From Hyphomicrobium sp. (GTDB taxonomy: Bacteria > Pseudomonadota > Alphaproteobacteria > Rhizobiales > Hyphomicrobiaceae), in contig NZ_JAIETU010000011.1 of the NCBI RefSeq assembly GCF_019744875.1, forward strand, positions 10,723 to 74,722: DNA of 64,000 bases. Reading direction: 5' to 3'. Shown here in pieces: positions 10,558 through 47,504 of the stretch; positions within the stretch are counted from its first letter, which is position 1; every line of letters begins with the position of its first letter. The notes under the pieces are model-generated. The model was not told the origin of the DNA. It worked only from the letters and a program-made list of their open reading frames with translations, and made no database searches. The position numbers were made by a program, and so were the translations under genes.

Positions 10558-10658
10558 CTGGCTCGTCTTTCTTCATGGGAGGCCACGGCACTCAGCGCAC
10601 GGACCAGCGTATGGAAATGCAGTCGCCCGGCGTGGGCTCTGTGTCAGTGTGACGGCGG

Positions 10659-19144: not shown

Positions 19145-19312
19145 GACTTGCGGAGTTGCACTGCACAAACTTTGTGCCTCCGAAGTGAAAACTGTCTGTT
19201 CTTTGGCCTTGCTGAAATCCCGCCAACGCGCGTATTCGTTAGATAAGTTCTGATCAGGAGCCATTTGCTGCAGCGCCACCGTAGGTACGCCAGCTGGCTC
19301 TAGATCCTGACA

Positions 19313-19402
19313 GGTGCCCAACGATGGGCGCTGATTTGGCAAAGCCGCCGTTCAAGCCATTGCGCACCAGCGCAGGGGTTTGACCGGCGGCTTTTTTGTT
19401 TT
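19313..19402 (+). promoter_or_regulatory. nas leader: two hexaloop hairpins (ANTAR target) overlapping an intrinsic terminator
   Basis: P1 is GGTGCCC-AACGAT-GGGCGCT. P2 is (T)GGC-AAAGCC-GCC(G). Both loops are A..G.. type. The terminator is GCCGCCG…CGGCGGC + TTTTTTGTTTT (19344-19402). Confidence 0.65.
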
Positions 19403-19432
19403 CAAGCCTCGCGGGCACGGGAGACCGGATCG

Positions 19433-20731: not shown

Positions 20732-20746
20732 CGGGAGGCCAGTGGA

Positions 20747-23197: not shown

Positions 23198-23201
23198 CGC
23201 C

Positions 23202-23528
23202 ATGCAGTGGATTGCAATCGGACAGCTATCGGATATTCCGCAGCGCGGCGCGCGATGCATCAAAACCCCTCACGGAAAAGTGGCCGTGTTCCGCACGGGT
23301 GACGATCGCGTGTTCGCTATCGAAGATCATTGCCCCCACAGGGGTGGCCCATTGAGTCAGGGCATCGTCCACGGCGCCTCCGTGACGTGTCCGTTGCACA
23401 ACTGGGTCATCTCTCTTGAGACCGGAAAGGCGCAAGGCGCAGACGAAGGAGCCGTGCGCACCATTCCGCTGAAAACAGAAGGCGGAACGATCTATATCGC
23501 CAGCAGCGCCGCAGTAGAGGCGGCCTGA
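23202..23528 (+). CDS. nirD: Nitrite reductase small subunit (Rieske-like)
   Basis: CPHRGGPLSQG…CPLHNW. 108 aa, directly after nirB. Confidence 0.9.
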   Translation: MQWIAIGQLSDIPQRGARCIKTPHGKVAVFRTGDDRVFAIEDHCPHRGGPLSQGIVHGASVTCPLHNWVISLETGKAQGADEGAVRTIPLKTEGGTIYIASSAAVEAA

Positions 23529-23531
23529 GCG

Positions 23532-28682: not shown

Positions 28683-29083
28683 GGCAGAGATGCCGGGGGG
28701 CATCGAGTATTGCGTGGGGGAAACTGATGTCGCGGCCTGCCGCTGCAGCTATTGCTGCGGGCGTTTTTCAAACAAATTCGACGTTCGCTGAGGCTCAGCG
28801 ATTTCGCTGCTCCGGCAGCAGATCCAAGGTATCGAGCCTGCGCCCGGGGTTTCCAGCCCCCATTCGAGCTCAGAGTGACGGACCAGGTGGTCCTCCCGCC
28901 TAAGGGTCGCGTCTCACGCTTTTCCCGCATGATTTAGCGCTCTGCTATCCGCGACCAGCACCCTCACGCCCATCAGAACAGGGCCGACCGGTCCTGCGCG
29001 GAACCGATCATGCCGACACCCAACAACATATCAAACGTGGTGAGCCACATCGGCCATCGCGCGTATCGCTAGGAGCGTTGCGT

Positions 29084-31447
29084 ATGAGAGAAGTGAAATT
29101 CGCGCTGACTGCTGCATTGTTTATGGCGCCCATGCCGGCGCTGGCGCAGGAAGCGAAGACCAATGAGAAAATCGAAAGCCTGCCGCCTGTCACCGTGACC
29201 ACCAATTCGCCGGCGAAGGCAGCAAAGTCCGCTGTTGCGAAGAAAAAGCCGCAGGCCGCGCCTGTAAGCACTCAAAATGTGCAGATCGAAGGGGCCAACG
29301 AGGCCCCGTCAACTCCCTCCGTCACGAGCAAAATTGTCGGCGGCGTGATTGTCACGAATCCGGATCTCGGGCGGGTCAGTAGCGTCACGCGCGAGGGCCT
29401 CACACTGTTCGGTGGTGGGGCGCAGACGAGCTTCTATCAAGCCGCCAACATCCTGCCTTCCGTGAACGTTGAGAGCCCTGATCCCTACGGCCTTAGCGCG
29501 ACGCGCAACATCAACATTGCGGGCAAGTCAGACTTTCATCTCTCCCGCAACATCAACGGGCTCCCCGTCGCCGGGATCGTGGGTGGTGCCGATCTCTACG
29601 ATCTCGAGAACATCTATCGGCTTGACGTCTATCGGGGAGCGATCCCGGCTGACAAAAGTCTTGGCATGTCCAACGCGTCCGGCGTGATCGACCAGATTAT
29701 TCTTGGTCCGCAAGACAAATCATCGAGCTTCTTTTCGCAGAGCTTCGGATCCTGGGATTTCAGCAAGACGTTTGCGCGTTTCGACAGCGGGCTGTTGAGC
29801 ACGGGCACGAAGTTCTTCGTCTCGGGCTCGGTTACGGACGCGGACAAGTGGACCGGAGTGGGCGATTCATCGCGCGATAACGCCGCTTTGGGCTGGAGCC
29901 AGAAGTTCGGAGACAACCTGAACGTCGACGTCAACGCCGTCTACAACAAGTTCGACGGCAATCCCTATCGTGCGCTGACCTATGCGCAGACGCGCGATCT
30001 CAAGAGCAACTACAAATTCGACTACAACACCGCTTTGACCGGCAATCCAGCGGCCGACGTCAACTATTACAAATTCAACCGCTCGAGCGCAGAGACCTAC
30101 GCGCTCCAAGCAAACATCGACTACGAGTTCTCCGAAGGCCAGCACGTCGTGTTCAAGCCCTACTATTGGAACAACGATGGCGTGCAGTATTCTGCAGCCG
30201 GCAACAACGTCCAGATTTGGCGTCAGGAAAACGATAACGTTGGCGGCGTGCTCGAATACAAGGGCCAGTTCGGAACCGGCACAGACCTCACAGTCGGATA
30301 CTGGTGGCAGTCCATGGCGCCTCCTCCGCCGCCGACTGACCAGCGTCGCTTCAGAGTCACGCCGACTGGGGACTTGGCGTTCGTGTCGTGGAACACGATC
30401 GCAAAGATCGATGATTTCGTCATCAACAGCCCGTACGCGCAGCTTACGCAGACTTTCGGATCGATCACCGTCACCGGCGGATTGCGCTACATGAGCCTCG
30501 GTGCGCCGGAGATGCAGTATTTCAACGGAGCGGGCGTGCCTGATGGCACCTTGGATGATGCCCTGGCCACTAATCCTGCTCTTCTCCCCGGCACCTCGGT
30601 GGCGCAGCACGACTACAACGAGTTCCTTCCGAACATCGCCATCACCAAGGATTTCGGCGCCGGATGGAGCGCAAACATCGCATACGGTCGCAACCTGGGG
30701 CGGCCGGACTGGGGTCCGCAGGCAAACAACTACATTTCCAACCGCGCTGCCTTCCAGGCCAAAGGCATCACGCTTCAGGATCTCGTTGACAAAGTTAGAC
30801 CTGAAATTGCCGATCAGATTTCGGCTCAAGTCAGCTTCCAGGGAAATGGCCTGACGGTCATTCCCTCCGTCTTCTATGCTGAGCGCGCCAACAAGCAGGT
30901 GAAGATTATCGATCCCGGCATCGGCCCCAACATTGCCTATTACGAAGGGACCGGGTCGAGCACGGAATACGGCGCTGAATTGCAGGTGGGCTATCAGTTC
31001 GGGTCGGAACTTTTTGTCTTCGGTTCGGGAACACTCGCCTCTGAGACCTTCGATGCCGACACGGCAACGCTGAGCGGCGGCGCGCTGCTCGGCACCAAAG
31101 GAAAGCAGATCCCCAACACGCCCCAGACGATGCTCAAAGCCGGCCTGACCTATAGCTGGGAAGGCTTCTCGTTCACGCCGGTCGTCCGGTACATCGGGGA
31201 ACGCTATGGCGACGCGTCGAACCTACAAAAGGTCTCTGCGTATACGGTGGCCGATTTTACTGTCGGCTATGACGCCACCCGCCTGTTCGATCTGGAAGAG
31301 GTGACAATGAGGGTTGGCGTCATGAACGTGTTCGATAGCAAGTATGTGTCTCAGATCGCGCCTAACGATTTCGATCTGAGCTCGAACGCGACGTACTACG
31401 TGGGTGCCCCGCGTACCTTCGTTGGCACCGTGGCGGTGAAATACTAG
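29084..31447 (+). CDS. TonB-dependent outer-membrane receptor
   Basis: Signal peptide, plug domain, beta-barrel, C-terminal …TFVGTVAVKY. AGGAG lies 8 nt upstream of ATG 29084. Confidence 0.9.
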   Translation: MREVKFALTAALFMAPMPALAQEAKTNEKIESLPPVTVTTNSPAKAAKSAVAKKKPQAAPVSTQNVQIEGANEAPSTPSVTSKIVGGVIVTNPDLGRVSSVTREGLTLFGGGAQTSFYQAANILPSVNVESPDPYGLSATRNINIAGKSDFHLSRNINGLPVAGIVGGADLYDLENIYRLDVYRGAIPADKSLGMSNASGVIDQIILGPQDKSSSFFSQSFGSWDFSKTFARFDSGLLSTGTKFFVSGSVTDADKWTGVGDSSRDNAALGWSQKFGDNLNVDVNAVYNKFDGNPYRALTYAQTRDLKSNYKFDYNTALTGNPAADVNYYKFNRSSAETYALQANIDYEFSEGQHVVFKPYYWNNDGVQYSAAGNNVQIWRQENDNVGGVLEYKGQFGTGTDLTVGYWWQSMAPPPPPTDQRRFRVTPTGDLAFVSWNTIAKIDDFVINSPYAQLTQTFGSITVTGGLRYMSLGAPEMQYFNGAGVPDGTLDDALATNPALLPGTSVAQHDYNEFLPNIAITKDFGAGWSANIAYGRNLGRPDWGPQANNYISNRAAFQAKGITLQDLVDKVRPEIADQISAQVSFQGNGLTVIPSVFYAERANKQVKIIDPGIGPNIAYYEGTGSSTEYGAELQVGYQFGSELFVFGSGTLASETFDADTATLSGGALLGTKGKQIPNTPQTMLKAGLTYSWEGFSFTPVVRYIGERYGDASNLQKVSAYTVADFTVGYDATRLFDLEEVTMRVGVMNVFDSKYVSQIAPNDFDLSSNATYYVGAPRTFVGTVAVKY

Positions 31448-31473
31448 AGGACGGCACGAATGGAGCGTCGCAG

Positions 31474-32550
31474 ATGCTCCATTCGTGTGCTTCCGGGAAC
31501 GACTGCATGCTCCTGATGCAAACGATCGCTCGCCGATCTATCCCGCTATGGCTCTCTCTCGTCGTGTTGGTTGCTGCTGGAGCGTCCCCTGTCCGCGCAG
31601 ATCGCCTCGTGACGGATATGGCCGGACGGACTGTGAAGGTGCCTGACAGGATTGCGCATGTGGCAACCATCGGGCCCGTTCCGGTTCTGAACAGCTTTGT
31701 GTTCGCCATGGGAGAAGCGGCGACGATCGCCAACAATCTACCGCCCAATCTCGGAGGACCGAGGTGGCGCTTCCAGTATGTGTTCGCGCCGCAAATCGCA
31801 AAGCAGCCGGTTATTCAAACTGGTGACGGGCCGAGCATAGAGGGTGTCGCCCAGCTTGCCCCCGATGTCGTTTTGACGATGGATCGGCCCACCATCGATC
31901 TGGTGGAGCGGGCGCGCACGCCCGCGATCTATTTGGCGTGGCGGGAGCCGGACGATGTGAAGACGGCAATGCGTCTGCTTGGGGCCTTGTATGATAAGCC
32001 GGATGTGGCGGAAACCTACTGCCGGTACTTCGACGACTCTCTCGCCAAGGTCAGCGCCCGTACCGATGCGTTGTCCGCAGCCGATCGGCCACGCGTTCTT
32101 TATGCAAACCTCAAACGCCTAACGCAGCCGCATCGCATCGCCGAGTGGTGGATCGCGAAAGCCGGAGGAAAAAGCGTAACCGATGACGGTCGCACCAGCG
32201 AAGCGTTCAACTTTTCAATCGAGCAGGTTTTGCTCTGGGACCCCGAAGTGATCATCGTTAGCGGAGCCGACGAGATCGCTGATGCCTACGCCGATGCGCG
32301 GCTCGCCGGCGTTTCGGCCATAAAGAAGCGTCGCGTGTATGCCGTGCCGATGGGCGCGCACGTTTGGGGGAATAGAACAGCCGAGCAGCCCCTGACCGTT
32401 CTCTGGGCGGCCAAGAACTTCCATCCCGAGCTATTCAAAGATGTGTCCCTCACTGAGGAAGTGCGCTCCTTCTACGCCAAGTTTTTTAAGGCCGGCCTGA
32501 GCGACAACGACATCGATGTGATCCTGGAGGGTCGCGCCGGTGCCCGATAG
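31474..32550 (+). CDS. Periplasmic substrate-binding protein, iron-chelate/B12 (cluster A, FecB/BtuF-like) type
   Basis: Signal peptide ending …GASPVRA/DR and Peripla_BP_2-like layout. The start may instead be 31507 or 31516. Confidence 0.75.
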   Translation: MLHSCASGNDCMLLMQTIARRSIPLWLSLVVLVAAGASPVRADRLVTDMAGRTVKVPDRIAHVATIGPVPVLNSFVFAMGEAATIANNLPPNLGGPRWRFQYVFAPQIAKQPVIQTGDGPSIEGVAQLAPDVVLTMDRPTIDLVERARTPAIYLAWREPDDVKTAMRLLGALYDKPDVAETYCRYFDDSLAKVSARTDALSAADRPRVLYANLKRLTQPHRIAEWWIAKAGGKSVTDDGRTSEAFNFSIEQVLLWDPEVIIVSGADEIADAYADARLAGVSAIKKRRVYAVPMGAHVWGNRTAEQPLTVLWAAKNFHPELFKDVSLTEEVRSFYAKFFKAGLSDNDIDVILEGRAGAR

Positions 32551-32620
32551 ACAGAAACACGAAGGGGCTCTGAGCTGCGACGATCAGAGGCGTCAAGCTT
32601 CGCCCGATGCCGCAGCGCCA

Positions 32621-33643
32621 ATGGGCTCGACGGTTCGCATCGGCCTTTCCGGATGCGGCGGCGGCCTGGAGTCGATCTCGTCATCGAAGCTGCTGGATCT
32701 CGTGGAGAGGATCGAAGCCTGGGGGTTCGATGCGCTGTGGCTGAACGAGGAGCACTTCCAGGGCAGCATCGTTGAAGTCGAAGGGCGCCGATGCCATTCG
32801 CCTCTCATCCTTGCGAGCGCCGTTCTTGCGCGTACGCGCAAATTGCGCGTCGGCTTTTCCGTGCTGCTGCTTCCGCTTCATCACCCGGTGCGTCTCGCGG
32901 AGGAAATCGCGACACTCGACGTGCTGTCCGACGGCCGGGTCGATTTCGGCATTTCGCGAGGCGGCAATGGTCGTTATCTCGAAGTGTATGGTGTGGCTCC
33001 CGAAAGTGTGGAGGAGCGCTTCCAAACGACACTGGAGTTTTGCCTCCAGGCTTGGCAGCAAGGCACGATGACGTTCGGAGGGAATGCCTACTCGATCGAG
33101 CCGAAGCCGGTCCAGAAGCCTCACCCTCCTGTCTTCATCGGCACCTATTCCGACGAGATGGCGGGCTGGACGGCGCGCGAGGGCCACGCGCTGATATGCC
33201 ATGGCATCACGAGCATGGACAATCAACGCCGCCTGGTGAAGGCCTTCAGTGACGCCGGAGGCGACGTGCGACGCGTCCCGTTTGGACGATTTGTCTATGT
33301 GAGCGAGACGGACGCGAGTGCGCGCAAAGAGCTTTGGCCGACGGTGCTGAAATTGACGGAGAGGCTGAGAGGCTTCGGTCTGTTCAATCGTAAGGGTGTT
33401 GTCGCCGAGCGGGATCTCGATCCGGAGGTCTTCTTCAACGAGATGGTCATTGCGGGCAGCCCCGAGACGTGCGCGCGGAAGGTTCTCGCGCTCCATGACG
33501 AACTCGGGTTGACGTACCTCAATGCCTTGAGCGCGTTCTTCGGCTTTTTGCCGCTCGAACTTCTCGAAAAGTCGCTGGCTCTATTGGGAACTGAAGTCCG
33601 GCCGCGCGTGGAGCGCGTGCTGGCTGCCGGTCTCACATCATGA
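32621..33643 (+). CDS. Luciferase-like (LLM class) flavin-dependent oxidoreductase
   Basis: GFDALWLNEEHF…LAEEIATLDVLSDGRVDFGISRG…KPHPPVFIG. Sits between the binding-protein and permease genes. An alternative GVG-overlap start lies at 32540. Confidence 0.8.
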   Translation: MGSTVRIGLSGCGGGLESISSSKLLDLVERIEAWGFDALWLNEEHFQGSIVEVEGRRCHSPLILASAVLARTRKLRVGFSVLLLPLHHPVRLAEEIATLDVLSDGRVDFGISRGGNGRYLEVYGVAPESVEERFQTTLEFCLQAWQQGTMTFGGNAYSIEPKPVQKPHPPVFIGTYSDEMAGWTAREGHALICHGITSMDNQRRLVKAFSDAGGDVRRVPFGRFVYVSETDASARKELWPTVLKLTERLRGFGLFNRKGVVAERDLDPEVFFNEMVIAGSPETCARKVLALHDELGLTYLNALSAFFGFLPLELLEKSLALLGTEVRPRVERVLAAGLTS

Positions 33644-34659
33644 GACGGCCGCGTTTATTCTCAATCAGTGCGCTGCTGATGCTGGCGTTGCTTGGCATGA
33701 CGGCAGTGTCGCTCGCTGTTGGCCGTTATCCGCTGAGCCTCGCGGACATTTGGGAGTTCCTGCAGGCGTCGGTCGGCCTGCGCGATATTGGGTCAGAACG
33801 GTACGCGCTGCTCTACAACATCATCGTCGAAATTCGATTGCCGCGAGTTCTGGCGGCCATCCTGATCGGCGCGGCGCTGGCGATATCGGGCGCCTCATTC
33901 CAAGCCGTGTTTCGCAACCCACTGGTCTCTCCCGGCATCCTCGGCGTGCTCGGGGGTGCCAGCTTCGGAGCGGCGCTTGGCCTGCTGCTGTCGGATCAAT
34001 GGCTCGTGATTCAACTGCTTGCCTTCACGATGGCGCTTTTGGCAGTTGGGTTTGGGGTTTTTATCGCCAATCTCTTCGGGCCAGCGACGATGGTGACGCT
34101 TGTTCTCGGCGGCATCATCAGTGGTGCGCTGTTCACAGCCTTGTTGTCGATTACCAAGTACACGGCGGATCCCTACAATGAACTGCCGGCAATCGTTTAT
34201 TGGCTGATGGGTAGTCTCCAGGCCGTGCAGTTGACGCACATCACCGCGGTGGCAATCCCGATCATCGCCGGCATCGTGGTGCTGACGCTGCTCGGTCACG
34301 CACTCGATGCCCTGTCGATGGGTGACGACGAAGCCCGTTCACTGGGAGTTCCCGTCACGGCTGTTCGCTATGGTGTGATTATCATGGCTACTCTTATCTC
34401 CGCACTGTCGGTGTCGATCGCGGGGATCATCGGATGGGTTGGGCTCGTGGTCCCGAATTTCGCGCGTCTGGCGTTCGGGCCAGCGAACACCCGCCTTCTG
34501 CCGCTCAGCGCGCTTATTGGATCGTTGTTTCTGCTGAGCGCCGACCTCATCACGCGTGTCATAACTCCTGCAGAGATCCCCATCGGGATCGTTACAGAGC
34601 TGCTTGGCATTCCCGCATTCCTACTTGTCCTTGGAAGGGCTAGGCGGGCTTGGATCTAG
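33640..34659 (+). CDS. FecCD-family ABC permease (iron-chelate type)
   Basis: IVEIRLPRVLAAILIGAALAISGASFQAVFRNPLVSPGILG is a FecCD signature. Overlaps the LLM gene stop. Confidence 0.9.
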   Translation: MRRPRLFSISALLMLALLGMTAVSLAVGRYPLSLADIWEFLQASVGLRDIGSERYALLYNIIVEIRLPRVLAAILIGAALAISGASFQAVFRNPLVSPGILGVLGGASFGAALGLLLSDQWLVIQLLAFTMALLAVGFGVFIANLFGPATMVTLVLGGIISGALFTALLSITKYTADPYNELPAIVYWLMGSLQAVQLTHITAVAIPIIAGIVVLTLLGHALDALSMGDDEARSLGVPVTAVRYGVIIMATLISALSVSIAGIIGWVGLVVPNFARLAFGPANTRLLPLSALIGSLFLLSADLITRVITPAEIPIGIVTELLGIPAFLLVLGRARRAWI

Positions 34660-34679
34660 ATCAGGCAAAACCCATCCAG

Positions 34680-35480
34680 ATGGAGATGTCGCGAGGGCCT
34701 CATCTCGTGGCGCGCGACATACATTTTCGGATTGGCGCGCACAACATCCTGAAGGGCATCGATCTGGCCATTGGTCCCGGTGAGATCATGTCGCTCCTGG
34801 GTGCCAACGGAGCGGGCAAGACAACACTGCTGCGCGTATTGCTGGGGCTGATTTCGCCCGCCCAGGGACAGGTTCTTATCGACGACACCGCGACTTCGTC
34901 TCTGGCGCGACGAGACGTGGCGCAACGCATGGCCTATGTGCCGCAAGTCCACATGACGCCGTTCCCCTACACCGTCCGCGAAGTCGTCGCGATGGGACGG
35001 CTGTCGCGGAAGGGCTTGTTGGGCAATCCGTCCGATCGCGATCAAGAGGTCGTCCAAAGCGTTCTCGAGCAGATCGAGATTTCGCGCCTCGCCGATCGCG
35101 TCTACAGCGAGATTTCCGGAGGTGAGCGTCAGCTCACGCTCATCGCGCGGGCGCTCGCGCAGCAAGCGTCGATCCTCATCCTGGATGAGCCGATGGCTAA
35201 CCTCGACTTCGGCTATCAGACCTTGCTCAGCACGCATCTGAGAAAACTCGCCCAATCGGGTCACACGATCCTCATGAGCGGCCACGACCCGCAGCTCGCT
35301 TTTCATTCGTCGACGCGCATCGGGCTGCTGTTTGATGGCCGTCTCGAGCTGGACGGCAAGCCACAAGACGTTTTGACCGCAGGGACGATGCAAAGGCTTT
35401 ACGGGGTCGATGTCGACATCATCGCGCTCGCTGACGGCCGAAGAGCATTTTTCCCGGTTGTCAGCCCGGTTAGTCAGTGA
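34680..35480 (+). CDS. ABC transporter ATP-binding protein (FecE/FepC-like)
   Basis: Walker A GANGAGKTT, signature SGGERQ, Walker B ILILDEP. Confidence 0.9.
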   Translation: MEMSRGPHLVARDIHFRIGAHNILKGIDLAIGPGEIMSLLGANGAGKTTLLRVLLGLISPAQGQVLIDDTATSSLARRDVAQRMAYVPQVHMTPFPYTVREVVAMGRLSRKGLLGNPSDRDQEVVQSVLEQIEISRLADRVYSEISGGERQLTLIARALAQQASILILDEPMANLDFGYQTLLSTHLRKLAQSGHTILMSGHDPQLAFHSSTRIGLLFDGRLELDGKPQDVLTAGTMQRLYGVDVDIIALADGRRAFFPVVSPVSQ

Positions 35481-37157: not shown

Positions 37158-37302
37158 GTGTGTGCCGGATGTCGCGGAACCGATACGTGTGTGAGGCAGT
37201 GTGGTAGCTGTGCGCCACCTCACTGTATGGATGACGCGACGCCCAACAAACGACACGATGCCGTGGCCGTTGGTGGCCAAGGCTGATGTCAATTTCGATC
37301 GA

Positions 37303-37755
37303 ATGCAAATGAGCCGTATCCGCAGACTGGCCGCGAGCTTTCTGATCGTTCTGCTGGTGCCATCTTTGGCGCTCGCGGCGACGCCGCTTCGCTATTGCAT
37401 CGGGCCGTCCGGTCATCAGGCGCTCGAGTTTGTCATCGACGGCATCTCCCACAGCGGCAATCACGCAAGCCACGGTCACTCATCGCAAGATGCTGACGAC
37501 TGCAGCGATGCCGGCAGCACGGCGTTCTTAGACGCCGAGAGGTGCACCGATACGGCGTTGATGGACACGGCTTCGGCGCCGCCCGTGGTGGACCTGAAGC
37601 ACCTCACAGTGTCGTCGCTGTTAGCGCAGCCGTTGTTCGTGATGCCCGCAGCGTCCGCCGACGATTTGCGCGGTCCTCCTATCGCCAATAGTCACAAGCC
37701 TCAGCTTGTCGATCCGCGCGTTGCGATCCGTCGCACGACGGTGCTGCTCATTTAG
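37303..37755 (+). CDS. Secreted Cys/His-rich protein of unknown function
   Basis: Signal peptide (…VPSLALA/ATP), then RYCIGPSGHQALEFVIDGISHSGNHASHGHSSQDADDC…ERC. No family recognised. A hairpin + TTTTCC follows at about 37774-37810. Confidence 0.55.
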   Translation: MQMSRIRRLAASFLIVLLVPSLALAATPLRYCIGPSGHQALEFVIDGISHSGNHASHGHSSQDADDCSDAGSTAFLDAERCTDTALMDTASAPPVVDLKHLTVSSLLAQPLFVMPAASADDLRGPPIANSHKPQLVDPRVAIRRTTVLLI

Positions 37756-38084
37756 AGCCATCGCGCCCTGCGCGTGCCTCACCTGCAATGCGGGTGAGCA
37801 CACTTTTCCAAACATCTGACAGCTCCGGCCTTGCCTTCGGCAATGCTCCAGCGTGCTCACGCTAACCGCCTCATTTCGATGAGTGGGGATCGATGAGTCG
37901 TGCGCGGATGCAAGTCGAGTTGGCCGCGCGGACGCTACGGACGTCACGGAGGCGGGCGCAAGCCCTGCCACCTCAAGGAACACGGCAATCGACAAGGAGG
38001 AAGCACGCCCTAAGCGACGAAACATTCATTGCGGCCGGTGAGGCCGTTCCAACCTCAACGCAGACCTAAACCTGGAGATGAAAA

Positions 38085-38345
38085 ATGAAATCAGTTGTTC
38101 GTATCGCAGCACTTGCTCTGAGCCTCGGCGCGCTGTCGCTTCCCGCGTTTTCGGCCGATGATCACGGGCATTGCTCGGGCGCAAATGTCTGCGCCGGTGA
38201 CGCTGCTTGTGAAAAGCAGGGCTACAAGGAGCTGACGAAGGACGAGTGCTCCAAGATCGACGGCGCCAAGTTCGAGGCTTCCTCGCATGAGGGCGAAGGC
38301 CACAAGGACGGCGATCACTCCAAGCACGACCACGACAAAAAGTAA
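38085..38345 (+). CDS. Orphan paralog of the bufferin-type precursor: four Cys, His-rich C-terminal tail
   Basis: Signal peptide (…SLPAFS/ADD). GHCSGANVCAGDAACEKQGYKELTKDECSKIDGAKFE aligns with 2197-2463. Tail is SSHEGEGHKDGDHSKHDHDKK. GGAG lies 8 nt upstream. Confidence 0.75.
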   Translation: MKSVVRIAALALSLGALSLPAFSADDHGHCSGANVCAGDAACEKQGYKELTKDECSKIDGAKFEASSHEGEGHKDGDHSKHDHDKK

Positions 38346-38353
38346 CGGACAGG

Positions 38354-38384
38354 GCCGCGCGGCATTCTTCGGATGCCGCGCGGC
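38354..38384 (+). terminator. Perfect 12-bp GC hairpin after the orphan precursor (no U-tract)
   Basis: GCCGCGCGGCAT-TCTTCGG-ATGCCGCGCGGC, 9 nt after the stop and 38 nt before the next ORF. Confidence 0.5.
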
Positions 38385-38422
38385 TGCCCGTTCCGTTGGG
38401 CAACCCATAGGGAGTACGACCC

Positions 38423-38683
38423 ATGCAAAAACTAGTCTGCCTTCTATTTGCAGGCTTCGTCTTTTCTCTCAGTCCGGCATCGGCGAATGTCGGCTCAGGC
38501 CTGCTCGCCAAGGCGTCCAGCCTCGACCGCGGTGTCACCGAAGGGCAGGTGCTTGAGATACGCCATCGCCACCGGCACTGGCGGCGGCATCATCACCATC
38601 GGAGATGGGGGCACCGCCATCATCGTCGGCACTGGGGGTTCAAGCTTCACCGGCGCCATCATCATCATCACCGCTATCATTGA
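38423..38683 (+). CDS. Secreted peptide with extreme His/Arg/Trp-rich C-terminal tail
   Basis: Signal peptide MQKLVCLLFAGFVFSLSPASA/NV. Tail is RHRHRHWRRHHHHRRWGHRHHRRHWGFKLHRRHHHHHRYH. GGGAG lies 8 nt upstream and a hairpin follows the stop. The tail frame is ambiguous (see findings). Confidence 0.45.
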   Translation: MQKLVCLLFAGFVFSLSPASANVGSGLLAKASSLDRGVTEGQVLEIRHRHRHWRRHHHHRRWGHRHHRRHWGFKLHRRHHHHHRYH

Positions 38684-38769
38684 CAGCGGTGGGCGCGGCG
38701 GTTGGGAAGTCCCGCCGCCGCGCTTGTCATATCCGCTGCGATAGCGGGCGCGTCCGGTGCTTCGGCGAT

Positions 38770-40482: not shown

Positions 40483-42714
40483 TCAGAACGAGACCTTGGT
40501 GCGCACGCCGTAGGTCGCCGGGTCGCCGAGCGCGCCATAGGCGCCCACGCCGCCGGTTCCGGCGAAGTCGTAGGAGTTCACCACGTAGCGCTCGTTGAGG
40601 ATGTTGCGGCCGAAGAAGGCGATGTCCATGTCGCCGTACTTGAAGCCGAGCGTCGCGTTGAGAAGCGTGACGCCCTTCTGCTTCGAGGCATTGGCTTCGT
40701 CGAGGTAGTAGTCACCCAGCGTGCGGGCATCGACAAGCAGGTAGCCGCCCCAGTCGGCCCGGTACTCGAAGCCATAGTTCGTTGTGAACGAGGGAATGAA
40801 GCTGACCTCGTTGCCGCTGAAATCGGCGTAGTCATTCACGAACTCGCCGAAAGTCGCATGCGTCACGCCGAGCCCGCCGAAGAGGCGGAGCTGGGACGTC
40901 ATCTGCAAGCTCGCCTCCAGCTCGCCGCCGTAGCTTTCGACGCGCTCAGCATTATTGACGCCGAACTCCGACGGGCTGAACTGGTTCAGCACCTGATAGT
41001 TCTCGGTGTCGGAATAGAAGAGCGAGCCGTTGAGGGCGAGGAAGCGTCCGAACGGCCGGCTCTTGAAGCCGATCTCGTAGTTGTCCGAGGTTTCTTCGTC
41101 GAAGCGGAACTCGTTGATGTCGGTCAGCGCGCGGTCGGCGATGAAGCCGCCCGGCTTGAAGCCGCGCGCATACTTCGCATAGGCCGTGAAGTTCGAGGTC
41201 GGCGCATAGAGCAGCGCAATCGAGGGCAGAACCTTCGCATAGTCCTTCTCGGCTTCTGCGATAAAGGGAGCTGGATGCGCGTTTTCTCCCTCGCGCCCTG
41301 CCCACTCGTAGCGCATGCCGGGGACAATGGTGAAGCCGCCGCCGAGCCCGTAGCGCAGCTCGCCGAAGACGGCGACGTCGTCGCTGGTCGTCTTGGCGTG
41401 CCGCAACGGCATGCCGGGAATTTCGATGTCGGGATAGAGCAGTGTGCCGCCGTCGAAATCCATGACGGTGTGCGCGGCGAAGACGCCGGCCGACCACTGA
41501 AGCTGCGCCGAGGGATCGTTCGACGTGAGGCGTACTTCCTGCGTCAGCGAGCGGACCTCCTCTTCCGAGTAGCCGATGTAACGCCACATCGGATCGGGAA
41601 TGGCCGTCTGGTCGCCGTCGTTGTGGAAGTCCCATGTCGAGCGGCGGTTTGCCGTGACCGACAGGATGTCGAACGTGTCGAAGCGGCTTTTGATGCGCAG
41701 GGCCTGCAGGTCCTGGCCGATGCGCTCCTTGCCGGGATCGTTATAGGTGACGTCGAACGGGGCGGTGGCAAGCTGCGCGAACGGAATGAACGGATCGCTC
41801 TGGTCGTCAAAGCGCTCGTGCTGCAGGATGAAATCGATGGTCGTGCGGCTTGTGGGCACGATGGTGAGCTTCGCCCGGCCGCCGTAGGATTCCTTGTCGC
41901 CGTAGGGCTCGTTCAGGGCGGTATTGTCATAGAAGCCGTCGCGCTTCTGGCCGATGAAGTCAGCGGTCAGGAAGGCGGAGCTTGAGCCGAGCGGCGTCGA
42001 GAAGCCTGCGCCGGCCTCGTACGCGTCGTAGTTTCCGGCCGATCCTGTGACGTAGCCGGTTGGCTTGTCGGTTGGGCCGCCCGTCTGGATGTCGATGACG
42101 CCTGCCGGGCGGCTGAACCCGAACGATGTGCTCTGCGGTCCCTTGAGCACGTTGATCTGGTCAACGCGCGTAAACATTGAGGCGCGGGCCAGTGTCGTCA
42201 GCGCGGGGATGTCATCCACGTAGTAGCCGACGCCGGGAACGACGCCAGGGGACGACTGGTAGCCAAGCTCGTGCACGCCGCGGATCGAGAAGGTCGGCAT
42301 GCGGTTGCCGCCGGAGTCGAAGCCGGTGACGTTCGGGAACGATTGGGCAAGATCGCGCGCGGTGCTGAGCCCGCGTGTTGCGACCTCGTCTCCGGTCATG
42401 ACGGAGACGCCCGAAGGAACATTCGCAAACTCGGCAGTGGCCTGCGAAATGCCATCCGCGGGTGGTTTAGCGGCGGGCGGAGGCTGGGGCTGCGGCGCGG
42501 TCGCAGCGACTGGCTGCTCAAGTGCCTTCTTTTGCGCCGCGGGTTTCTTCGCCTTCTTGGCGGTGACGCTCAGAGGCGGCAGATCATACGTCTCGTTGGC
42601 GTCCGCCGGCTTGGCGGCCTGCTGGGCCACAGCTTCTCCGGCGGCCACGACGGCGCAAGAAACGGCATATGCCAGAACGCAGGCCATTCGGCCCGATGCG
42701 AGAAAAGCGGTCAT
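40483..42714 (-). CDS. TonB-dependent siderophore receptor
   Basis: Signal peptide, Pro/Ala-rich linker, plug (SGVSVMTGDE…FSIRG), barrel, C-terminal YGVRTKVSF. Confidence 0.9.
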   Translation of the reverse strand: MTAFLASGRMACVLAYAVSCAVVAAGEAVAQQAAKPADANETYDLPPLSVTAKKAKKPAAQKKALEQPVAATAPQPQPPPAAKPPADGISQATAEFANVPSGVSVMTGDEVATRGLSTARDLAQSFPNVTGFDSGGNRMPTFSIRGVHELGYQSSPGVVPGVGYYVDDIPALTTLARASMFTRVDQINVLKGPQSTSFGFSRPAGVIDIQTGGPTDKPTGYVTGSAGNYDAYEAGAGFSTPLGSSSAFLTADFIGQKRDGFYDNTALNEPYGDKESYGGRAKLTIVPTSRTTIDFILQHERFDDQSDPFIPFAQLATAPFDVTYNDPGKERIGQDLQALRIKSRFDTFDILSVTANRRSTWDFHNDGDQTAIPDPMWRYIGYSEEEVRSLTQEVRLTSNDPSAQLQWSAGVFAAHTVMDFDGGTLLYPDIEIPGMPLRHAKTTSDDVAVFGELRYGLGGGFTIVPGMRYEWAGREGENAHPAPFIAEAEKDYAKVLPSIALLYAPTSNFTAYAKYARGFKPGGFIADRALTDINEFRFDEETSDNYEIGFKSRPFGRFLALNGSLFYSDTENYQVLNQFSPSEFGVNNAERVESYGGELEASLQMTSQLRLFGGLGVTHATFGEFVNDYADFSGNEVSFIPSFTTNYGFEYRADWGGYLLVDARTLGDYYLDEANASKQKGVTLLNATLGFKYGDMDIAFFGRNILNERYVVNSYDFAGTGGVGAYGALGDPATYGVRTKVSF

Positions 42715-42856
42715 TCAGTAGCCCCCACGGCGATCAAACTCATGCTGGGATAGGAGGGCAGCAGGAGATCGATAACAATCGCCGCGGCTTTGGGGATTCC
42801 GTCTTTGTCTTTGGCTTTTCGCGTCGAGCGAAGGGGGCAACGGATGAGACCGGCGG

Positions 42857-43699
42857 CTAGGTCTCATCGCGGCCGACGCACGTGCTCGGCGATACGCCGA
42901 AACGCTTGCGGAACTCGGTCGAGAAATGCGCCGGATGGTAGCCGCAGCTGTAGGCGGCTTGGGACACGGACATTTCGCCCTGCTCGAGCAGCATCTTGGC
43001 GTGATCGAGGCGTGCCGCTTTGACGTAGGCGTAGACGCTCGCGCCGAACAGGGCGCGAAACAGCTCTCCCAACCGGTGGGCATTCATGCCGACTTTGCGG
43101 GCAAGGTCGGGAACGCTCGGCGGATCGGAAAGTGAGGCCAGTAACATTCCGCGAGCCGCATGAACGCGTTCGATCTCGCCGGCGCGGGCAGAGGGTACGC
43201 CGTCCGTGCCCGATGGACTGGCTCTGCCCATCGCATCGCTCTGGGCAACGACGGACAGCAGCTCCAGCGCCTTGCCGGAAAGGTAGAGCCGACGTGCGGG
43301 ACCAACCAGCGGGCAACCGAGCATCTGCCAGGCCAGGGCATTCGCCGGGCGATGATTGTTCCACGATCGGTAGTTTGTCTTGGGAGGCGCGAGGGCGGTG
43401 CGGGCGCCGGGCCCGGCGATGGCGTCTACGCGCTCGAAGGGGAGACGGATGAAGACGGCGCTAAGCTGGCAGTCCTGCGGCACCCTATGCTCGATGCTCA
43501 CCGGATCTTCGAGGCAGTAGTTGATCACCGTCCGCGGTGTCCAGGTGTTGTCGAAACCGGAGCGCGAGGTGGAAATCGTGCCTTCGGTCAGAATACCGCA
43601 CCAGATTCCGGGCAGCATCGAAGAGTCCCAGCGTTGCGCTTCGGACAACGTCATCCTCGAGAGGATGATTTCCAGGCCGTCGAATTGGACGGTTTCCAT
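42857..43699 (-). CDS. AraC-family regulator (PchR/RhrA-like siderophore-responsive type)
   Basis: C-terminal double HTH (VPDLARKVGMNAHRLGELFRALFG…SVSQAAYSCGYHPAHFSTEFRKRFG). Lies upstream of the receptor gene. Confidence 0.85.
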   Translation of the reverse strand: METVQFDGLEIILSRMTLSEAQRWDSSMLPGIWCGILTEGTISTSRSGFDNTWTPRTVINYCLEDPVSIEHRVPQDCQLSAVFIRLPFERVDAIAGPGARTALAPPKTNYRSWNNHRPANALAWQMLGCPLVGPARRLYLSGKALELLSVVAQSDAMGRASPSGTDGVPSARAGEIERVHAARGMLLASLSDPPSVPDLARKVGMNAHRLGELFRALFGASVYAYVKAARLDHAKMLLEQGEMSVSQAAYSCGYHPAHFSTEFRKRFGVSPSTCVGRDET

Positions 43700-43739
43700 A
43701 TCTGGTTCCTACACCTGCAAACCTCACGCTTACATAATA

Positions 43740-43756
43740 TTGACCGCAATAGTCAA
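43740..43756. promoter_or_regulatory. Inverted repeat TTGAC-N7-GTCAA (contains TGA-N9-TCA)
   Basis: TTGACCGCAATAGTCAA, 41-57 nt upstream of the AraC ATG (43699). Confidence 0.35.
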
Positions 43757-43876
43757 GTTTAAGCCCGCGGCTGGCGCGCGACCGCAGTCGGGTGTGGCCG
43801 TCCGGGCGCCGGTTGGTCTGTCGGAGCTTTGGAAATTGGAATCTGGGTCGTCGGAGCGCCGGTTTGGCAGCACGCG

Positions 43877-44080
43877 CTAGGGATTTGGCCCTTGGGCCGC
43901 GCTGGGCCGGCGGGCGGAGTTCGGCCAGAGACCGTAGGCGCAAACGGCCACAGGCACGGCGAGAAGCGCCCAGGATATCGCGTCCCAACCGGCGTCGCCC
44001 GTCAGTCCAATGAGCAGACCCGCGATCGTCGCGACTGCCATGACGGCGGGATAGGTCCAAATGCCGGAGCGCCTTCGCAC
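43877..44080 (-). CDS. Small two-TM membrane protein
   Basis: GTG start overlaps the PepSY gene's TAG stop by 1 nt. Two hydrophobic helices. Confidence 0.45.
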   Translation of the reverse strand: MRRRSGIWTYPAVMAVATIAGLLIGLTGDAGWDAISWALLAVPVAVCAYGLWPNSARRPSAAQGPNP

Positions 44081-45252
44081 TATCTCCGACCTCCATCACG
44101 GAGGCGGCGTGCCCGCAGGATGCGGCCGGACCACAGAACCAGGCCCGATCCGAGAACGAAAATCGTGAGCAGGGTGAGGAGTGCCCAGATTATTTTGAGG
44201 GGGAGGCCACCGTAGTCGCCAAAGTGCAGCGGTTGCGAGACGAGAAGGGCCGTGACGTACCAGGGCATCGCGCGCGAGTCGACGACGCGGCCGGTGGCCG
44301 CATCGCAGACCACGGGTTTGAGAAGGCGCGATGTCAGGGGCGAGGCGCCCTTCATGAACACGGCATAGTGGCTGGCGCTCGAAAAGATCGATCCCGGAAA
44401 CGCGATGAACGACGGCTTCATTCCGGTCGCCAGGGCTTGGGCGGCGTCGGCCGTTTGCTGGACGGAGGACAGCGTTTCGGGGCGCGGCCTGCCGGCTTCC
44501 TTGCCCAGCATGTCGGCGAGCTGGTCGTACTGCCAGTACTTTATGGTGAGATCGGCAAAGGCGTTGAGCACACCCGTTGACCCAACGACCAGCATCCAGC
44601 ATCCGATCACGATGCCCACGAGGTTGTGAAGATCGAGCCAGCGCACGATGGCCACGCGATGGTGGCGGACTTCGCCAAATTTCAGACGCCGCATGGAAGG
44701 CCCGTACAGGGCAATGCCGCTGGCGATAGCCAGAACGAAGCAGGCGCCCATCACCCCGAGAAAGATCTTGCCCTTCAATCCAAGCAGCAACTCTGTGTGC
44801 AGGCGAAGGATAAAGGGAAGCACGCCCGACTGCGCATTTATCTCATCGAGGATAGCGGCTCGATGGGCATCGACGCGGACGGTGCGGTTCTTGGTGTAAT
44901 CCGATGTGGGCGTTGCTCCGATCGAGAGGAGAACGACGCCCGGCTGATCGTCGTCCCAGAACACGAATTGGACCGCGTGACCTGGCAGATGCGCGTGGCC
45001 CGCTGCAACGATGCGGTCGAGGCTCGCGGGCTGTGTGCCAGGTGCGACGGGCTGCGGCGCGGCGTGTGTTCCGCTCAGCTCTTCGATCTAGTGGGCGAAA
45101 ATGAGAGGCAGTCCCGTCAGGCATAGAACGAGCAGGAATGCTGTGGCTACCAGGCTGCTCCACGTATGGACGACCGACCAGAGCCGCCCGCTGCGGATAC
45201 GGCGGGCGGCTGCGGGATAGAGGATCGTTGTGGGATGACCGTCCGCCGGCAT
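44080..45252 (-). pseudogene. PepSY-associated TM protein (PiuB/FoxB-like) interrupted by an in-frame TAG
   Basis: ATG at 45252 overlaps the receptor stop (TAATG). It reads MPADGH…WSVVHTWSSLVATAFLLVLCLTGLPLIFAH-TAG(45088-45090)-IEELSG…FVFWDDDQP…, continuing in the same frame. Confidence 0.75.
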
Positions 45253-47504
45253 TAGAACTTCTGGCTGGCGCCAATGCCGACCACACGGCCGTGCCCGACT
45301 GCCATGCTATGAATGTTCGGCGTGTACGTTGCGCCGAAATACTGCGCATGCTCGTCGAGCATGTTGTTGCCAAACCCGTAGATCTTCAGGTCCTGGTGCT
45401 CCCACTCGATCCGCAGGTTGACAATGCTGTACGGGTCCAGGTCGAACGTGTTGCGGATGTCTGCGGCGCGCGCGCCGACATACTGGTATTCGGCCTGGGT
45501 CAGGACGCTGCCGGGAATTCCCAGCTCGTGGCCGGGAATGCGATACTGCGCGGATACGTTCGCCGTCATATCGGCCGACAAGGGAACGCGGTTGCCGTTG
45601 GCGGCGCCGGTCATGCTGCCGGGCTTTACCCCCACCATTTCGGATTCAGTGACACCCAATCCCGCGGTGACGGTCAGCCGCTCAGTCAGACGGGCGGCGC
45701 CTTCGACTTCGAAGCCGTAAGAATTGTAGTCCTGGTTGGCGAATATGTAGACCGGCACGCCGCCGCTAATGATGTAGTCGTAGAGCTGACCATCGGCGAT
45801 GTCGTTGAAGAAGGCGCTCACGTTCAAATCGGCGCGGCGGTTGAACCAGGAGGTCTTGGCGCCGACTTCGTAGGTCCATCCCGTCGATGCGCCGAACGGA
45901 ACGGAGGGGTTGCCGAGGGCCGAGTTGATCGCCGTTTTCTCGAAGCCGCCGGAGGCGTAGCCGCGGGCGATCGAGGCATAGGTCATGACGGTGGAGGTCC
46001 AATCGTAGGAGGCGGCCGCGCGCCCGGTGAGGTAGGTATCCGACACGCTCTGCCGCTGGCTGAAGGTCGGGACCGTGCCGGGAAATCCGTTCGACACATA
46101 GAGCGACGACAGCTCTTGATCGTCGTGGGACAGGCGAAGTCCGCCGGAAATCTTCAGCCTCTCCGTCAGCGGCACTGTCGTGTCACCGAAAACCGACCAT
46201 GTCTGCGCGGTGATGGCGATGTCGTTGGTGCCGTTCTGGTAGGGGCTCAGCGAGCTTTTCTGGACCCGCTGCTGATCGTACTCGGAGCGGAAGTAGTTCG
46301 CGCCGATCACCCATGAGATGGGGCTCGCATCTGTGGAACTCAGGCGAAATTCCTGATTGTAGATCTTCTCTGTTTCGTCGATGTCCGTCCAATCCGTGGA
46401 GGGATCGGCGAAGTAGGCCGGCGGCAGTCCTGTGTATGCCGAGAAGAGGAACGAGTCCGTGCCGTCGTAGTAGCCGGCGAGGTCGAGGTTCTGGAAATTC
46501 GATACGGACGTGAAGACGACGCCATCGAAGCGGCGCTGGATATCGGCGGTGAACTCGGAGCGCTCGCGGTCGTTCATTGGAATGATATCGGCGCCGCTCA
46601 CGGGATAGCCCGGCTGCTCCAGCAGAAGGGTGTAGGAGTTGTGGCGCTTGTCGCGATCATGGCCGGCCATGAGGTTGATCGTGAGATCGGGTGACGGTGT
46701 GAAGCGGAGCGTGCCACGCCCTGCTGCCAACTCGGCACCCCCTTCGTGGCCCCCGGCGATGCGATTTGGAATGTCGCCGTCCAGGTCTTGGAAGCGCAGT
46801 GCTGCGCGTCCTGCCACAAGGCCGGGCGCGAGCCAGCCGCCTGCGACGACCTCGGCCAGCTTGTGTCCGCTGCTTCCGAGTTCGCCGGTGACCTTGAACT
46901 CCCGCTCGCCGTCTGCGCCCCTGGTGATGACGTTGACGGCGCCACCGAGGGCGTTGCGGCCGAACAGTGTGCCCTGTGGTCCGCGCAGCACCTCGACACG
47001 CTCGACGTCGAGCAATGACGGCGGATAGCCGAACGCGGTTGTCGGGACGCCGTTGGTCGCGAAGCCGACCGTGTTGTCGAGAGAGTTCAGCGGATTTCCC
47101 AAAGGACCGACGCCGCGCATGTTCACGAAGTCGAGACCCGGCTGGCCGAAGCCTGCAAACACGAAGTTGGGCGAGGCGCGGGTGATCTCGGCTCCGGGAT
47201 CGCTGCTGTAGAAGTTGGGAACGTCGCTCATGCCGCCGGACGGGGCGCCTGTGCCGCCGTTGCCGGCCGTGTCGGGTGCTCCCTCGATGACGGTGATGCC
47301 GATCGGTACGTTGCGGGCCTGCTCGACGCGCTTCGTCGAGGAGATCTTGCCGGGCTTGCCGGTGGCTTCGACCGTCAACGGCGCGAGTTCGACCGTCTCG
47401 CCGGCCGGTTGAGGGTCTTGTGGCGCCGCGTCTTGCGCCAGCGCCGAGCTGGCCAGTCCCAATGCCATGGCGGCCACGCCGCACAATCTATCGACGCGCA
47501 TCAA
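45252..47504 (-). CDS. TonB-dependent siderophore receptor
   Basis: Signal peptide, plug (ITVIEG…VEVLRGPQGTLFGRNA), barrel, C-terminal VGIGASQKF. Confidence 0.9.
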   Translation of the reverse strand: MMRVDRLCGVAAMALGLASSALAQDAAPQDPQPAGETVELAPLTVEATGKPGKISSTKRVEQARNVPIGITVIEGAPDTAGNGGTGAPSGGMSDVPNFYSSDPGAEITRASPNFVFAGFGQPGLDFVNMRGVGPLGNPLNSLDNTVGFATNGVPTTAFGYPPSLLDVERVEVLRGPQGTLFGRNALGGAVNVITRGADGEREFKVTGELGSSGHKLAEVVAGGWLAPGLVAGRAALRFQDLDGDIPNRIAGGHEGGAELAAGRGTLRFTPSPDLTINLMAGHDRDKRHNSYTLLLEQPGYPVSGADIIPMNDRERSEFTADIQRRFDGVVFTSVSNFQNLDLAGYYDGTDSFLFSAYTGLPPAYFADPSTDWTDIDETEKIYNQEFRLSSTDASPISWVIGANYFRSEYDQQRVQKSSLSPYQNGTNDIAITAQTWSVFGDTTVPLTERLKISGGLRLSHDDQELSSLYVSNGFPGTVPTFSQRQSVSDTYLTGRAAASYDWTSTVMTYASIARGYASGGFEKTAINSALGNPSVPFGASTGWTYEVGAKTSWFNRRADLNVSAFFNDIADGQLYDYIISGGVPVYIFANQDYNSYGFEVEGAARLTERLTVTAGLGVTESEMVGVKPGSMTGAANGNRVPLSADMTANVSAQYRIPGHELGIPGSVLTQAEYQYVGARAADIRNTFDLDPYSIVNLRIEWEHQDLKIYGFGNNMLDEHAQYFGATYTPNIHSMAVGHGRVVGIGASQKF

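Follow-up and report, generated by a model that had tools for sequence, protein, structure and literature searches.

SilE is an intrinsically disordered periplasmic metal 'sponge' that is encoded together with the sil efflux system (PMC5008109). The Hpn and Hpn-2 proteins of Helicobacter are histidine-rich and bind nickel (PMC4671568). Bufferins of the BufA2 type are Sec-exported copper metallophores that belong to the ribosomally synthesized and post-translationally modified peptides (RiPPs); they carry 6 or 12 conserved cysteines, and their genes lie next to MNIO (DUF692) and DUF2063 genes (PMC11626156). Here we describe a small gene, g4, that resembles the first two in some respects and departs from them in others; the bufferins are relevant to its neighbor g3. 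It lies in a 64,000-nucleotide stretch of Hyphomicrobium sp. DNA (contig NZ_JAIETU010000011.1, positions 10,723 to 74,722), which is called the window throughout. All positions are those of the window unless another locus is named; loci carry L numbers and individual proteins P numbers.

Codon comparison among orthologues shows that positions 38423..38683 are a real protein-coding gene that is read in a His/Arg/Trp frame. The tail of its product is under strong purifying selection, with residues conserved position by position. The sequence features of g4 are those of an exported precursor, in which a Sec-type signal is followed by a 24-residue neutral spacer and a 41-residue basic tail. With regard to function, the reading that we favor, at about even odds, is that g4 is a disordered periplasmic metal-handling peptide, which would bind excess divalent transition metals via clustered imidazoles.

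Reading frame, architecture and distribution of g4

The gene and its signals are as follows.

38410..38414, plus strand: ribosome-binding site GGGAG, 8 nt before the ATG
38423..38683, plus strand: g4, the His/Arg/Trp peptide gene, 86 codons and a stop, supported by nine homologues and by codon-position and pN/pS tests
38423..38485, plus strand: signal peptide, residues 1-21, MQKLVCLLFAGFVFSLSPASA, with predicted cleavage at ASA/NV
38486..38557, plus strand: neutral spacer, residues 22-45, NVGSGLLAKASSLDRGVTEGQVLE, ending in a conserved V(L/I)(Q/E)(I/V)R boundary
38558..38680, plus strand: polycationic His/Arg/Trp tail, residues 46-86, with the invariant HRHHRRHW and a short alternating G-F-K-L-H-R segment
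38688..38726, plus strand: GC hairpin directly 3' of the g4 stop, without a T-run

A protein search gave 9 clear homologues of 84-90 aa and 46-92% identity. All nine have a common signal, spacer and His/Arg/Trp tail, and 28 alignment columns are invariant, including those of HRHHRRHW (H64-W71). Reading-frame tests were made on the contigs that encode orthologues; 8 orthologues were codon-aligned, and the ratio of nonsynonymous to synonymous differences (pN/pS) was calculated on ungapped blocks of the tail. Pairwise differences in the tail were 0.16, 0.116 and 0.516 at codon positions 1, 2 and 3, and the same comparison shows the tail to be the most constrained part of g4 at the amino-acid level. 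For the tail, pN/pS comes to 0.11 in the His/Arg/Trp frame; the other two sense frames have 1.63 (+1) and 3.05 (+2), and the antisense frames 1.3, 4.06 and 0.5. The +2 frame is interrupted by a stop in one orthologue. The g4 open reading frame (ORF) is intact in all eight near-identical loci (L020-L027), where length changes consist of whole His codons (HHHHH versus HHHH). This conservation takes a chance ORF out of consideration.

The original prediction, made from the letters of the window, had left the frame ambiguous and had allowed for a frameshift or a sequencing error. It had observed that third-position GC over the tail is higher in the +1 frame, and the arithmetic is correct: GC by codon position is 0.80/0.44/0.61, which gives the +1 frame a 'GC3' (GC content at third codon positions) of 0.80 against 0.61. 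This high value arises from the CAY and CGN codons of the tail. The frameshift, sequencing-error and alternative-frame readings are rejected because of the codon-position and pN/pS data, and because the ORF is intact with whole-codon changes. Homologues that keep the other frame, or no frame, had been named as what would speak against the gene; the orthologues keep the His/Arg/Trp frame.

It is scarcely credible on these data that the true product is the Gly/Thr/Ile ORF of the +1 frame (38448..38744) or an antisense ORF, or that the interval is a frameshifted pseudogene or a regulatory leader made of His/Arg/Trp codons. Besides GC3, such readings have on their side the behavior of automatic gene callers, which at the eight near-identical contigs called the correct gene in one (L026), an antisense ORF in five, the +1 frame in one (L022) and nothing in one. 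They can also point to the metagenome variant P0008, which is frameshifted near the 3' end of g4. The pN/pS values and the interrupted +2 frame stand against them, and the signal peptide and ribosome-binding site are conserved for the His/Arg/Trp frame alone. A leader peptide would have no need of a conserved signal peptide, and no biosynthetic operon lies downstream. The +1 frame, the antisense ORF, the pseudogene and the attenuator leader are all contradicted by the comparative data. A RiPP precursor was also considered and set aside; no modifying enzyme was found among the called or scanned genes at the loci.

The 3' end of g4 varies in one respect. The run of His codons there differs among strains (HHHHH versus HHHH when L025 and L027 are compared with the window), and the frameshift in P0008 produces an ending of the form ...ITTTIITT... 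Runs of CAY codons appear to be prone to slippage.

The translation of 38423..38683 is exactly as originally quoted, and the ribosome-binding site stands at the predicted 8-nt distance; orthologues have AGGGAG, AAGGAG or ACGGAG at an equal distance. The proposal of a secreted peptide is supported, in that the signal peptide is kept in every orthologue and in distant relatives. The signal MQKLVCLLFAGFVFSLSPASA has a Sec n/h/c layout with K/R in the n-region, a 13-residue hydrophobic core and Ala at -3 and -1, and its LSPASA is invariant across all orthologues in the alignment. The GC hairpin expected after the stop is present and longer than the 9 bp first described. It has arms at 38691..38701 and 38712..38723, about 17 pairs and a folding energy of -30.6 kcal/mol, and it lacks a T-run.

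The tail holds 18 His, 13 Arg and 3 Trp in 41 residues (83%). Only about 15% of its residues are hydrophobic. Its charge is about +15 at pH 7 and +27 at pH 5.5, and that of the mature protein is about +14. The tail is 45% His, and every other 40-residue stretch in the six frames of the 64-kb window has at most 22.5%. A search of the ORF with Tandem Repeats Finder gave no DNA tandem repeat. An AlphaFold 2 model (mean predicted local distance difference test score, pLDDT, 57; predicted template modeling score 0.19) places residues 2-15 in a helix and assigns no secondary structure to the tail, where pLDDT is 50-59.

The g4 family is tiny and unnamed, and it was found only in Hyphomicrobium and in metagenomes. 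The original prediction recognized no family, in agreement with searches of Pfam and NCBIfam (the window protein and one orthologue, up to E=10) and of PDB sequences, all of which returned zero matches. Literature searches by motif and for small His-rich periplasmic proteins found no paper that describes the family. A plasmid collection was searched by megablast with 4.6 kb and by tblastn with g3 and g4, and no match came up. An exhaustive profile search of 1.84 billion cluster representatives retrieved just three with E<1e-30. A collection of 15 billion proteins does not contain the exact window protein, yet it is encoded exactly by L020 and L022. Among 185,579 species-representative genomes, a scan with g3, the gene upstream of g4, had its sole match in Hyphomicrobium zavarzinii ATCC 27496 (L015), which has all five genes of the cluster and whose g4 protein is identical to P0009. 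A genome scan with the g4 alignment gave 598 pattern matches, none of which was confirmed, although H. zavarzinii carries g4. Since this known carrier went unconfirmed, the tblastn confirmation is apparently blind to the low-complexity g4. The neighboring proteins carry the label 'hypothetical protein' in Hyphomicrobium sp. DMF-1 and a Hyphomicrobium metagenome-assembled genome as well as in H. zavarzinii.

The rarity of the family is therefore partly an annotation artefact. Correct calling in only one of eight contigs results from the misleading GC3 and open antisense frames of CAY/CGN-rich genes. Such genes are a systematic blind spot for gene callers, and this is an annotation warning that can be generalized. 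Because of the miscalling and of absence from the protein collection, protein-database searches understate how common such genes are. At one locus (L008), the gene call at the position of g5, the last gene of the cluster, also reads as an off-frame product.

The g1-g5 cluster and its genomic contexts

g4 is the fourth of five co-oriented small-protein genes, each with a signal peptide, and the order g1-g2-g3-g4-g5 is kept across loci. No curated family was found for any of the five. The elements of the cluster are listed below, together with those that the window lacks.

37239..37269, plus strand: 31-nt element ACGCCCAAYAAACGACAYGATGCCRTGGCCG, about 40-70 nt upstream of g1
37309..37755, plus strand: g1, which opens the cluster and encodes an exported protein of about 148 aa, PLRYCIGPSGHQALEF ... 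VDPRVAIRRTTVLLI, with orthologues in the same position in all loci; characterized by PLRxCIGPSGHQAIEF ... VDPRIEVRRTVVLLI and a mature charge of -5.6
Other loci: g2, 90-101 aa, Gly/His-rich, with CRLTHDGLVCGGG and a mature charge of about +8
38085..38345, plus strand: g3, exported acidic 86-aa Cys4/His protein, DDHGHCSGANVCAGDAACEKQGYKEL..., constant upstream partner of g4
38353..38384, plus strand: GC-rich hairpin between the g3 stop and the g4 ribosome-binding site, 12-16 bp stem, in the same place in 7/7 orthologous loci
38701..38745, no strand: 45-bp junction in place of 448 bp carrying g5, from blastn against the 97%-identical L001
Other loci: g5, 99-114 aa, VEQIARRCRYD ... Tyr-rich ... 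poly-His/Gly, with a mature charge of about +10

The pair g3-g4 is constant. In 13/13 loci the two genes are direct neighbors with 70-85 nt between them, and loss of g2 or g5 does not alter this. The original prediction had linked g4 to the neighboring peptide, and what stands of that link is an association by this strict adjacency. Mature g3 has a pI of 5.5, a charge of -5.6 and four Cys; its orthologues are 80-89% identical, and the window copy is identical to WP_291155063.1 (Hyphomicrobium sp.). The hairpin between the two genes was compared in the window, L003, L005, L008, L010, L013 and L014. The stem sequences differ and the pairing is kept, there is no T-run, and the hairpin was not among the calls of a terminator scan. 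It may act as a partial terminator, or it may stabilize the mRNA as a stem that sets the g3:g4 expression ratio.

g2, g4 and g5 have a common layout, in which a signal and an Ala/Gly/Ser spacer of about 20 residues are followed by a (D/E)-V-x-Q-I/V-A/R-K/R boundary and a basic His-rich tail. Profile-profile comparison (hhalign) of the three gave only 44-83% probability, and any common ancestry is putative. For g1, alternative upstream starts are present at 37201, 37258 and 37303. A paralogue of g1, 143 aa long, is encoded directly upstream of OEP-CzcB-RND genes (L005, 10763..11194; L010, 9356..9787; L008, 7452..7883). Neither g1 nor this paralogue has a Pfam or NCBIfam match, and all their homologues are 'hypothetical protein' of Hyphomicrobium. 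The paralogue stands in the position that czcI has in Cupriavidus; the name CzcI for g1 was set aside, the analogy being one of gene position only. Six loci share the element ACGCCCAAYAAACGACAYGATGCCRTGGCCG almost without change, although the DNA around it does not align among them. No convincing RNA structure was found for it, and an Rfam search of 36000-40000 gave no match. It is probably a promoter or an operator/regulator site for the cluster.

Metal efflux genes lie within about 10 kb of the cluster in 6/6 distinct contexts other than that of the window. An RND pump is present in each of the six, as a truncated RND fragment only in L013. Several contexts have, in addition, a CDF transporter, a CsoR/RcnR-type repressor, or MerR together with a P-type ATPase. 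In L005-7, L015 and L050, the cluster abuts genes for a PEMT-like membrane protein, a CDF transporter and a CsoR/RcnR-type repressor, which are followed by the g1 paralogue directly upstream of OEP-CzcB-RND genes. L008/9 have the same arrangement without the CDF gene. In L010-12, genes of this set, OEP-CzcB-RND included, stand beside the cluster, with MerR, an HMA P-type ATPase, LspA and DUF411 on the other side, and L013 has MerR with the RND fragment. In L003/4/129, the cluster is carried on a ParA/relaxase element, with a two-component system, CusF and an RND pump 6-9 kb away. Integrase or large helicase genes flank several of the loci, and an integrase, relaxase or ParA gene is often present.

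A separate observation concerns regulation of the pump genes. The interval that separates the CsoR/RcnR-type repressor gene from the operon of the g1 paralogue and czc genes contains a perfect G-tract palindrome, ATCCTATCC-TGGGGG-ATAGGAT (L005, about 10632..10653; L010, about 9224..9247; L008, about 7320..7342). It does not occur upstream of the g1-g5 cluster, and it looks like an operator for the repressor.

Distant relatives of g4 were collected from weak profile matches (E 1e-9 to 1e-3) and an exact-DNA scan. They are small exported proteins with a V-x-Q-V-R-H-x-H-R-H-W boundary and His/Arg/Trp/Tyr tails, and they share the signal-spacer-basic-tail layout of g4. Some continue into Tyr/Pro/Gly-rich tails that end in ...GFGF. 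The His/Arg/Trp segment stands between the signal and a C-terminal BA14K domain in P0028 and P0029, and it occurs with a chitin-binding CBM_5_12 domain in P0039. One independent distant relative, P0012, comes from a different lineage, in which an RND/CzcB pump is accompanied by an array of its own of small exported ORFs rich in His.

L016, 5651..5890, 6001..6264 and 6870..7136: His-rich ORFs of the types His/Arg/Met-rich (…HGHHRHMGRHHRHGHMMRHHHHRR…), His/Arg/Gly/Trp-rich and (GH)n-Phe/Trp repeat

This array suggests that small exported His-rich peptides recur next to metal pumps. An exact-DNA scan of metagenomes for HRHHRRHW gave 120 hits, mostly spurious frames in GC-rich DNA. Among the real hits were only 3 additional orthologues, along with small exported proteins of 3 other kinds that end in the motif. 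These otherwise unrelated proteins ending in ...HRHHRRHW(H/R) are encoded at L044, L114, L115, L117, L123 and L032 (77-78 aa), at L092/L098 and at L053; one conserved type has QHVITNPGWCAQFYPNANCQNYGRGNPYTSYGW and another has a Tat-like signal. These proteins were ascertained by design, since the octapeptide was the query. HRHHRRHW may be a portable C-terminal motif, and only the orthologous g4 family is tied to metal islands.

In the window, which is almost certainly Hyphomicrobium chromosome, the cluster is reduced to g1, g3 and g4. By blastn, positions 1-8281 of the 97%-identical L001 correspond to window positions 30387-38700, and L001 8730-13881 to 38746-43897. The intervening 448 bp of L001 (8282..8729) carry g5, which encodes a 114-aa His/Tyr-rich exported protein, and the 45 bp in the window contribute to the hairpin after the g4 stop. 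g5 is missing in the window, L020 and L022 and present in L001 and L023-L026; g2 is absent from the whole chromosomal lineage of the window, L001 and L020-27. No copy or remnant of g2 or g5 was found anywhere in the window. In this lineage, the cluster is located downstream of a LysR gene, between two uptake regions. The first (29078..35480, 29.1-35.5 kb) is a cluster of genes for a TonB receptor, a periplasmic binding protein, a luciferase-like protein, FecCD and ABC components. The second (40483..47504) is a cupin-MFS-TonB receptor-AraC unit followed by PepSY_TM and another TonB receptor.

In total, the window encodes three TonB-dependent receptors along with siderophore-type ABC, MFS, AraC and PepSY_TM genes. 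It also carries a nitrate-assimilation cluster (17310..26192) with an ANTAR regulator, an NMT1-like binding protein, an MFS transporter, a NirB-like nitrite reductase and a molybdopterin nitrate reductase.

Proposed function of g4

In the proposed metal-handling role, export and cleavage would yield a mature peptide of about 65 residues that is disordered in the periplasm or envelope. The neutral spacer would plausibly, on general principles, allow Sec initiation ahead of the highly basic segment. The mature peptide would probably handle excess Zn, Co, Cd, Ni or Cu through its clustered imidazoles. On the same kind of grounds, the flanking Arg residues plausibly depress the pKa of His, keeping His deprotonated and the affinity modest. 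The result would be a high-capacity buffer that is engaged only at high metal load. g4 would probably work together with the acidic g3 and, where present, with g2 and g5.

A periplasmic metal buffer was among the roles first suggested for the peptide. It gains circumstantial support because the orthologues lie beside metal efflux genes. The P0012 array next to an RND/CzcB pump speaks for it as well, SilE is a precedent, and the low pLDDT and unstructured tail of the AlphaFold 2 model are in line with the predicted disorder. Several observations weigh against it. The window copy itself is not beside efflux genes; its neighbors are TonB-receptor and siderophore-type uptake genes. The contexts that do have efflux genes are not fully independent, because they are mostly metagenome contigs of one genus. 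The 13 Arg make the tail strongly cationic, which disfavors the binding of more cations. It is also unusual for a mere sponge to be conserved so strictly by position, and this is a hint of a specific partner or structure. Finally, proteins that end in HRHHRRHW or share the layout occur in unrelated contexts (def-fmt, a GntR regulator, a PAS kinase). Because the contexts of these other motif-bearers are not metal-related, the octapeptide may have a more general envelope role.

As an alternative, the polycationic tail could bind the acidic g3 in a two-protein complex that acts as chaperone, inhibitor or co-receptor, with metal binding by the tail being secondary. We regard this as rather unlikely, and it partly overlaps the metal-handling proposal. 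The invariable adjacency of the two genes across loci that have lost g2 or g5 is in its favor, as are the opposite charges of the mature proteins (-5.6 versus +14). Individual His and Arg positions of the tail are conserved, as would suit a defined interface, and the conserved hairpin between the genes suggests tuned relative expression. Adjacency alone, however, does not show binding, and g3 (80-89% identity) is far more conserved than g4 (46-92%). The same polycation might instead serve as an envelope charge shield that coats lipopolysaccharide phosphates, acidic glucans, phospholipids or polyphosphate without chelation, so as to reduce the binding or entry of toxic cations or to stabilize the outer membrane. 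This idea we judge unlikely. It accords with the charge of the tail (about +15, rising to +27 at pH 5.5), and the 3 Trp and a short amphipathic strand of the G-L-R-I type are possible interfacial anchors. The fusion of related segments to lectin-like BA14K or CBM_5_12 domains (P0028, P0029, P0039) points the same way, and the relatives in non-metal contexts fit a general envelope role. A charge shield leaves unexplained why His dominates over Lys and Arg and is conserved, and why g4 co-occurs with the His-rich, non-cationic g1 and g3.

A cationic antimicrobial-like peptide had also been suggested for this gene. A secreted antimicrobial or bacteriocin-like product of the Trp/Arg-rich or histatin-like type would be consistent with the signal peptide, and the composition recalls Arg/Trp-rich and His-rich cationic peptides. 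This suggestion did not hold up well and is now very improbable. No immunity, ABC-export or processing genes were found in about 20 loci, the few hydrophobic residues of the tail (about 15%) are out of keeping with it, and the genomic company of the family is metal efflux. Moreover, a Sec signal would deliver the peptide into the periplasm of its own producer.

At the level of the cluster, we advance a tentative and somewhat doubtful reading. g4 and the acidic Cys4/His protein g3 would be the core of an unrecognized accessory metal-defence cluster, g1-g5, that lies beside czc-type efflux genes in Hyphomicrobium, often with mobility genes. g4 would then be a new class of disordered periplasmic metal-buffering or envelope-shielding protein. 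The routine choice of the antisense or a shifted frame by gene callers would have kept such a class from view. If this is true, metal-resistance islands of methylotrophic Hyphomicrobium carry small exported His-rich proteins that act in the periplasm alongside efflux pumps. A His/Arg/Trp polycation, being unlike the described His/Met sponges, would represent a new chemistry of periplasmic metal buffering, and g4 could be a useful metal-binding peptide. In summary, the biology of g4 is plausible but unproven, and the annotation blind spot is concrete.

Relation to described exported and metal-binding proteins

The window gene has the marks that define the g4 orthologue family: the LSPASA signal, the neutral spacer, the V-x-Q-I/V-R boundary, the HRHHRRHW tail and a position downstream of g3. 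Exported His-rich proteins of metal homeostasis are already known as a kind; the five-gene cluster is undescribed.

g3 and the bufferins are alike in being small, Cys-containing proteins with a Sec signal in a metal-stress context. Matches of g3 to BufA2 (NF050166) are sub-threshold, at 27 bits for the window protein and 23 bits for an orthologue against a cut-off of 60, and g3 has 4 Cys. No MNIO (DUF692) or DUF2063 gene was found among the called genes of all loci. g3 could be an unmodified bufferin relative, or the match could reflect chance Cys spacing. The NCBIfam model mini_HHHH (NF040554) does not match g4; its only match is g5 of L005, with 17.7 bits against a cut-off of 40. BA14K (PF07886) is a domain of small exported proteins of Hyphomicrobiales. 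It has an equal taxonomic range, and P0028 and P0029 combine it with a g4-type segment. g4 and its orthologues have no BA14K domain, so the link is a distant one, and the function of BA14K is poorly defined.

Hpn and Hpn-2 are, like g4, very small proteins with about 45% His, and there is no homology between them. The Hpn proteins are cytoplasmic, have no signal peptide and are rich in Gln, Glu and Cys rather than Arg and Trp. Histatins and Arg/Trp-rich antimicrobial peptides belong to eukaryotic host defence. They combine His with basic and some aromatic residues and are disordered, and histatins bind Zn and Cu. Their composition is similar to that of g4, whereas g4 is bacterial, would reside in the envelope of the cell that makes it and has no genes of an antimicrobial system around it. 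With Hpn and the histatin-like peptides, g4 shares composition and not ancestry.

SilE and PcoE come closest. They are small, Sec-exported, disordered and rich in metal-ligand side chains; g4 is likewise small and rich in such side chains, and for g4 export and disorder are predicted. Their genes lie beside those for RND pumps, P-type ATPases and other efflux systems on mobile elements. The g4 orthologues have efflux genes at up to about 10 kb in all 6 contexts other than that of the window, often with mobility genes, and the window copy has none beside it. There is no sequence similarity between the two (zero Pfam or NCBIfam matches for g4 up to E=10). SilE and PcoE, neither of them polycationic, rely on His/Met motifs; the g4 tail has no Met, and hence no HxxM or MxxH, and carries 13 Arg and 3 Trp. 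The order of residues in g4 is, in addition, strictly conserved. By analogy, g4 would be functionally most like the periplasmic metal binders of the SilE/PcoE type, yet it is not a member of that group.

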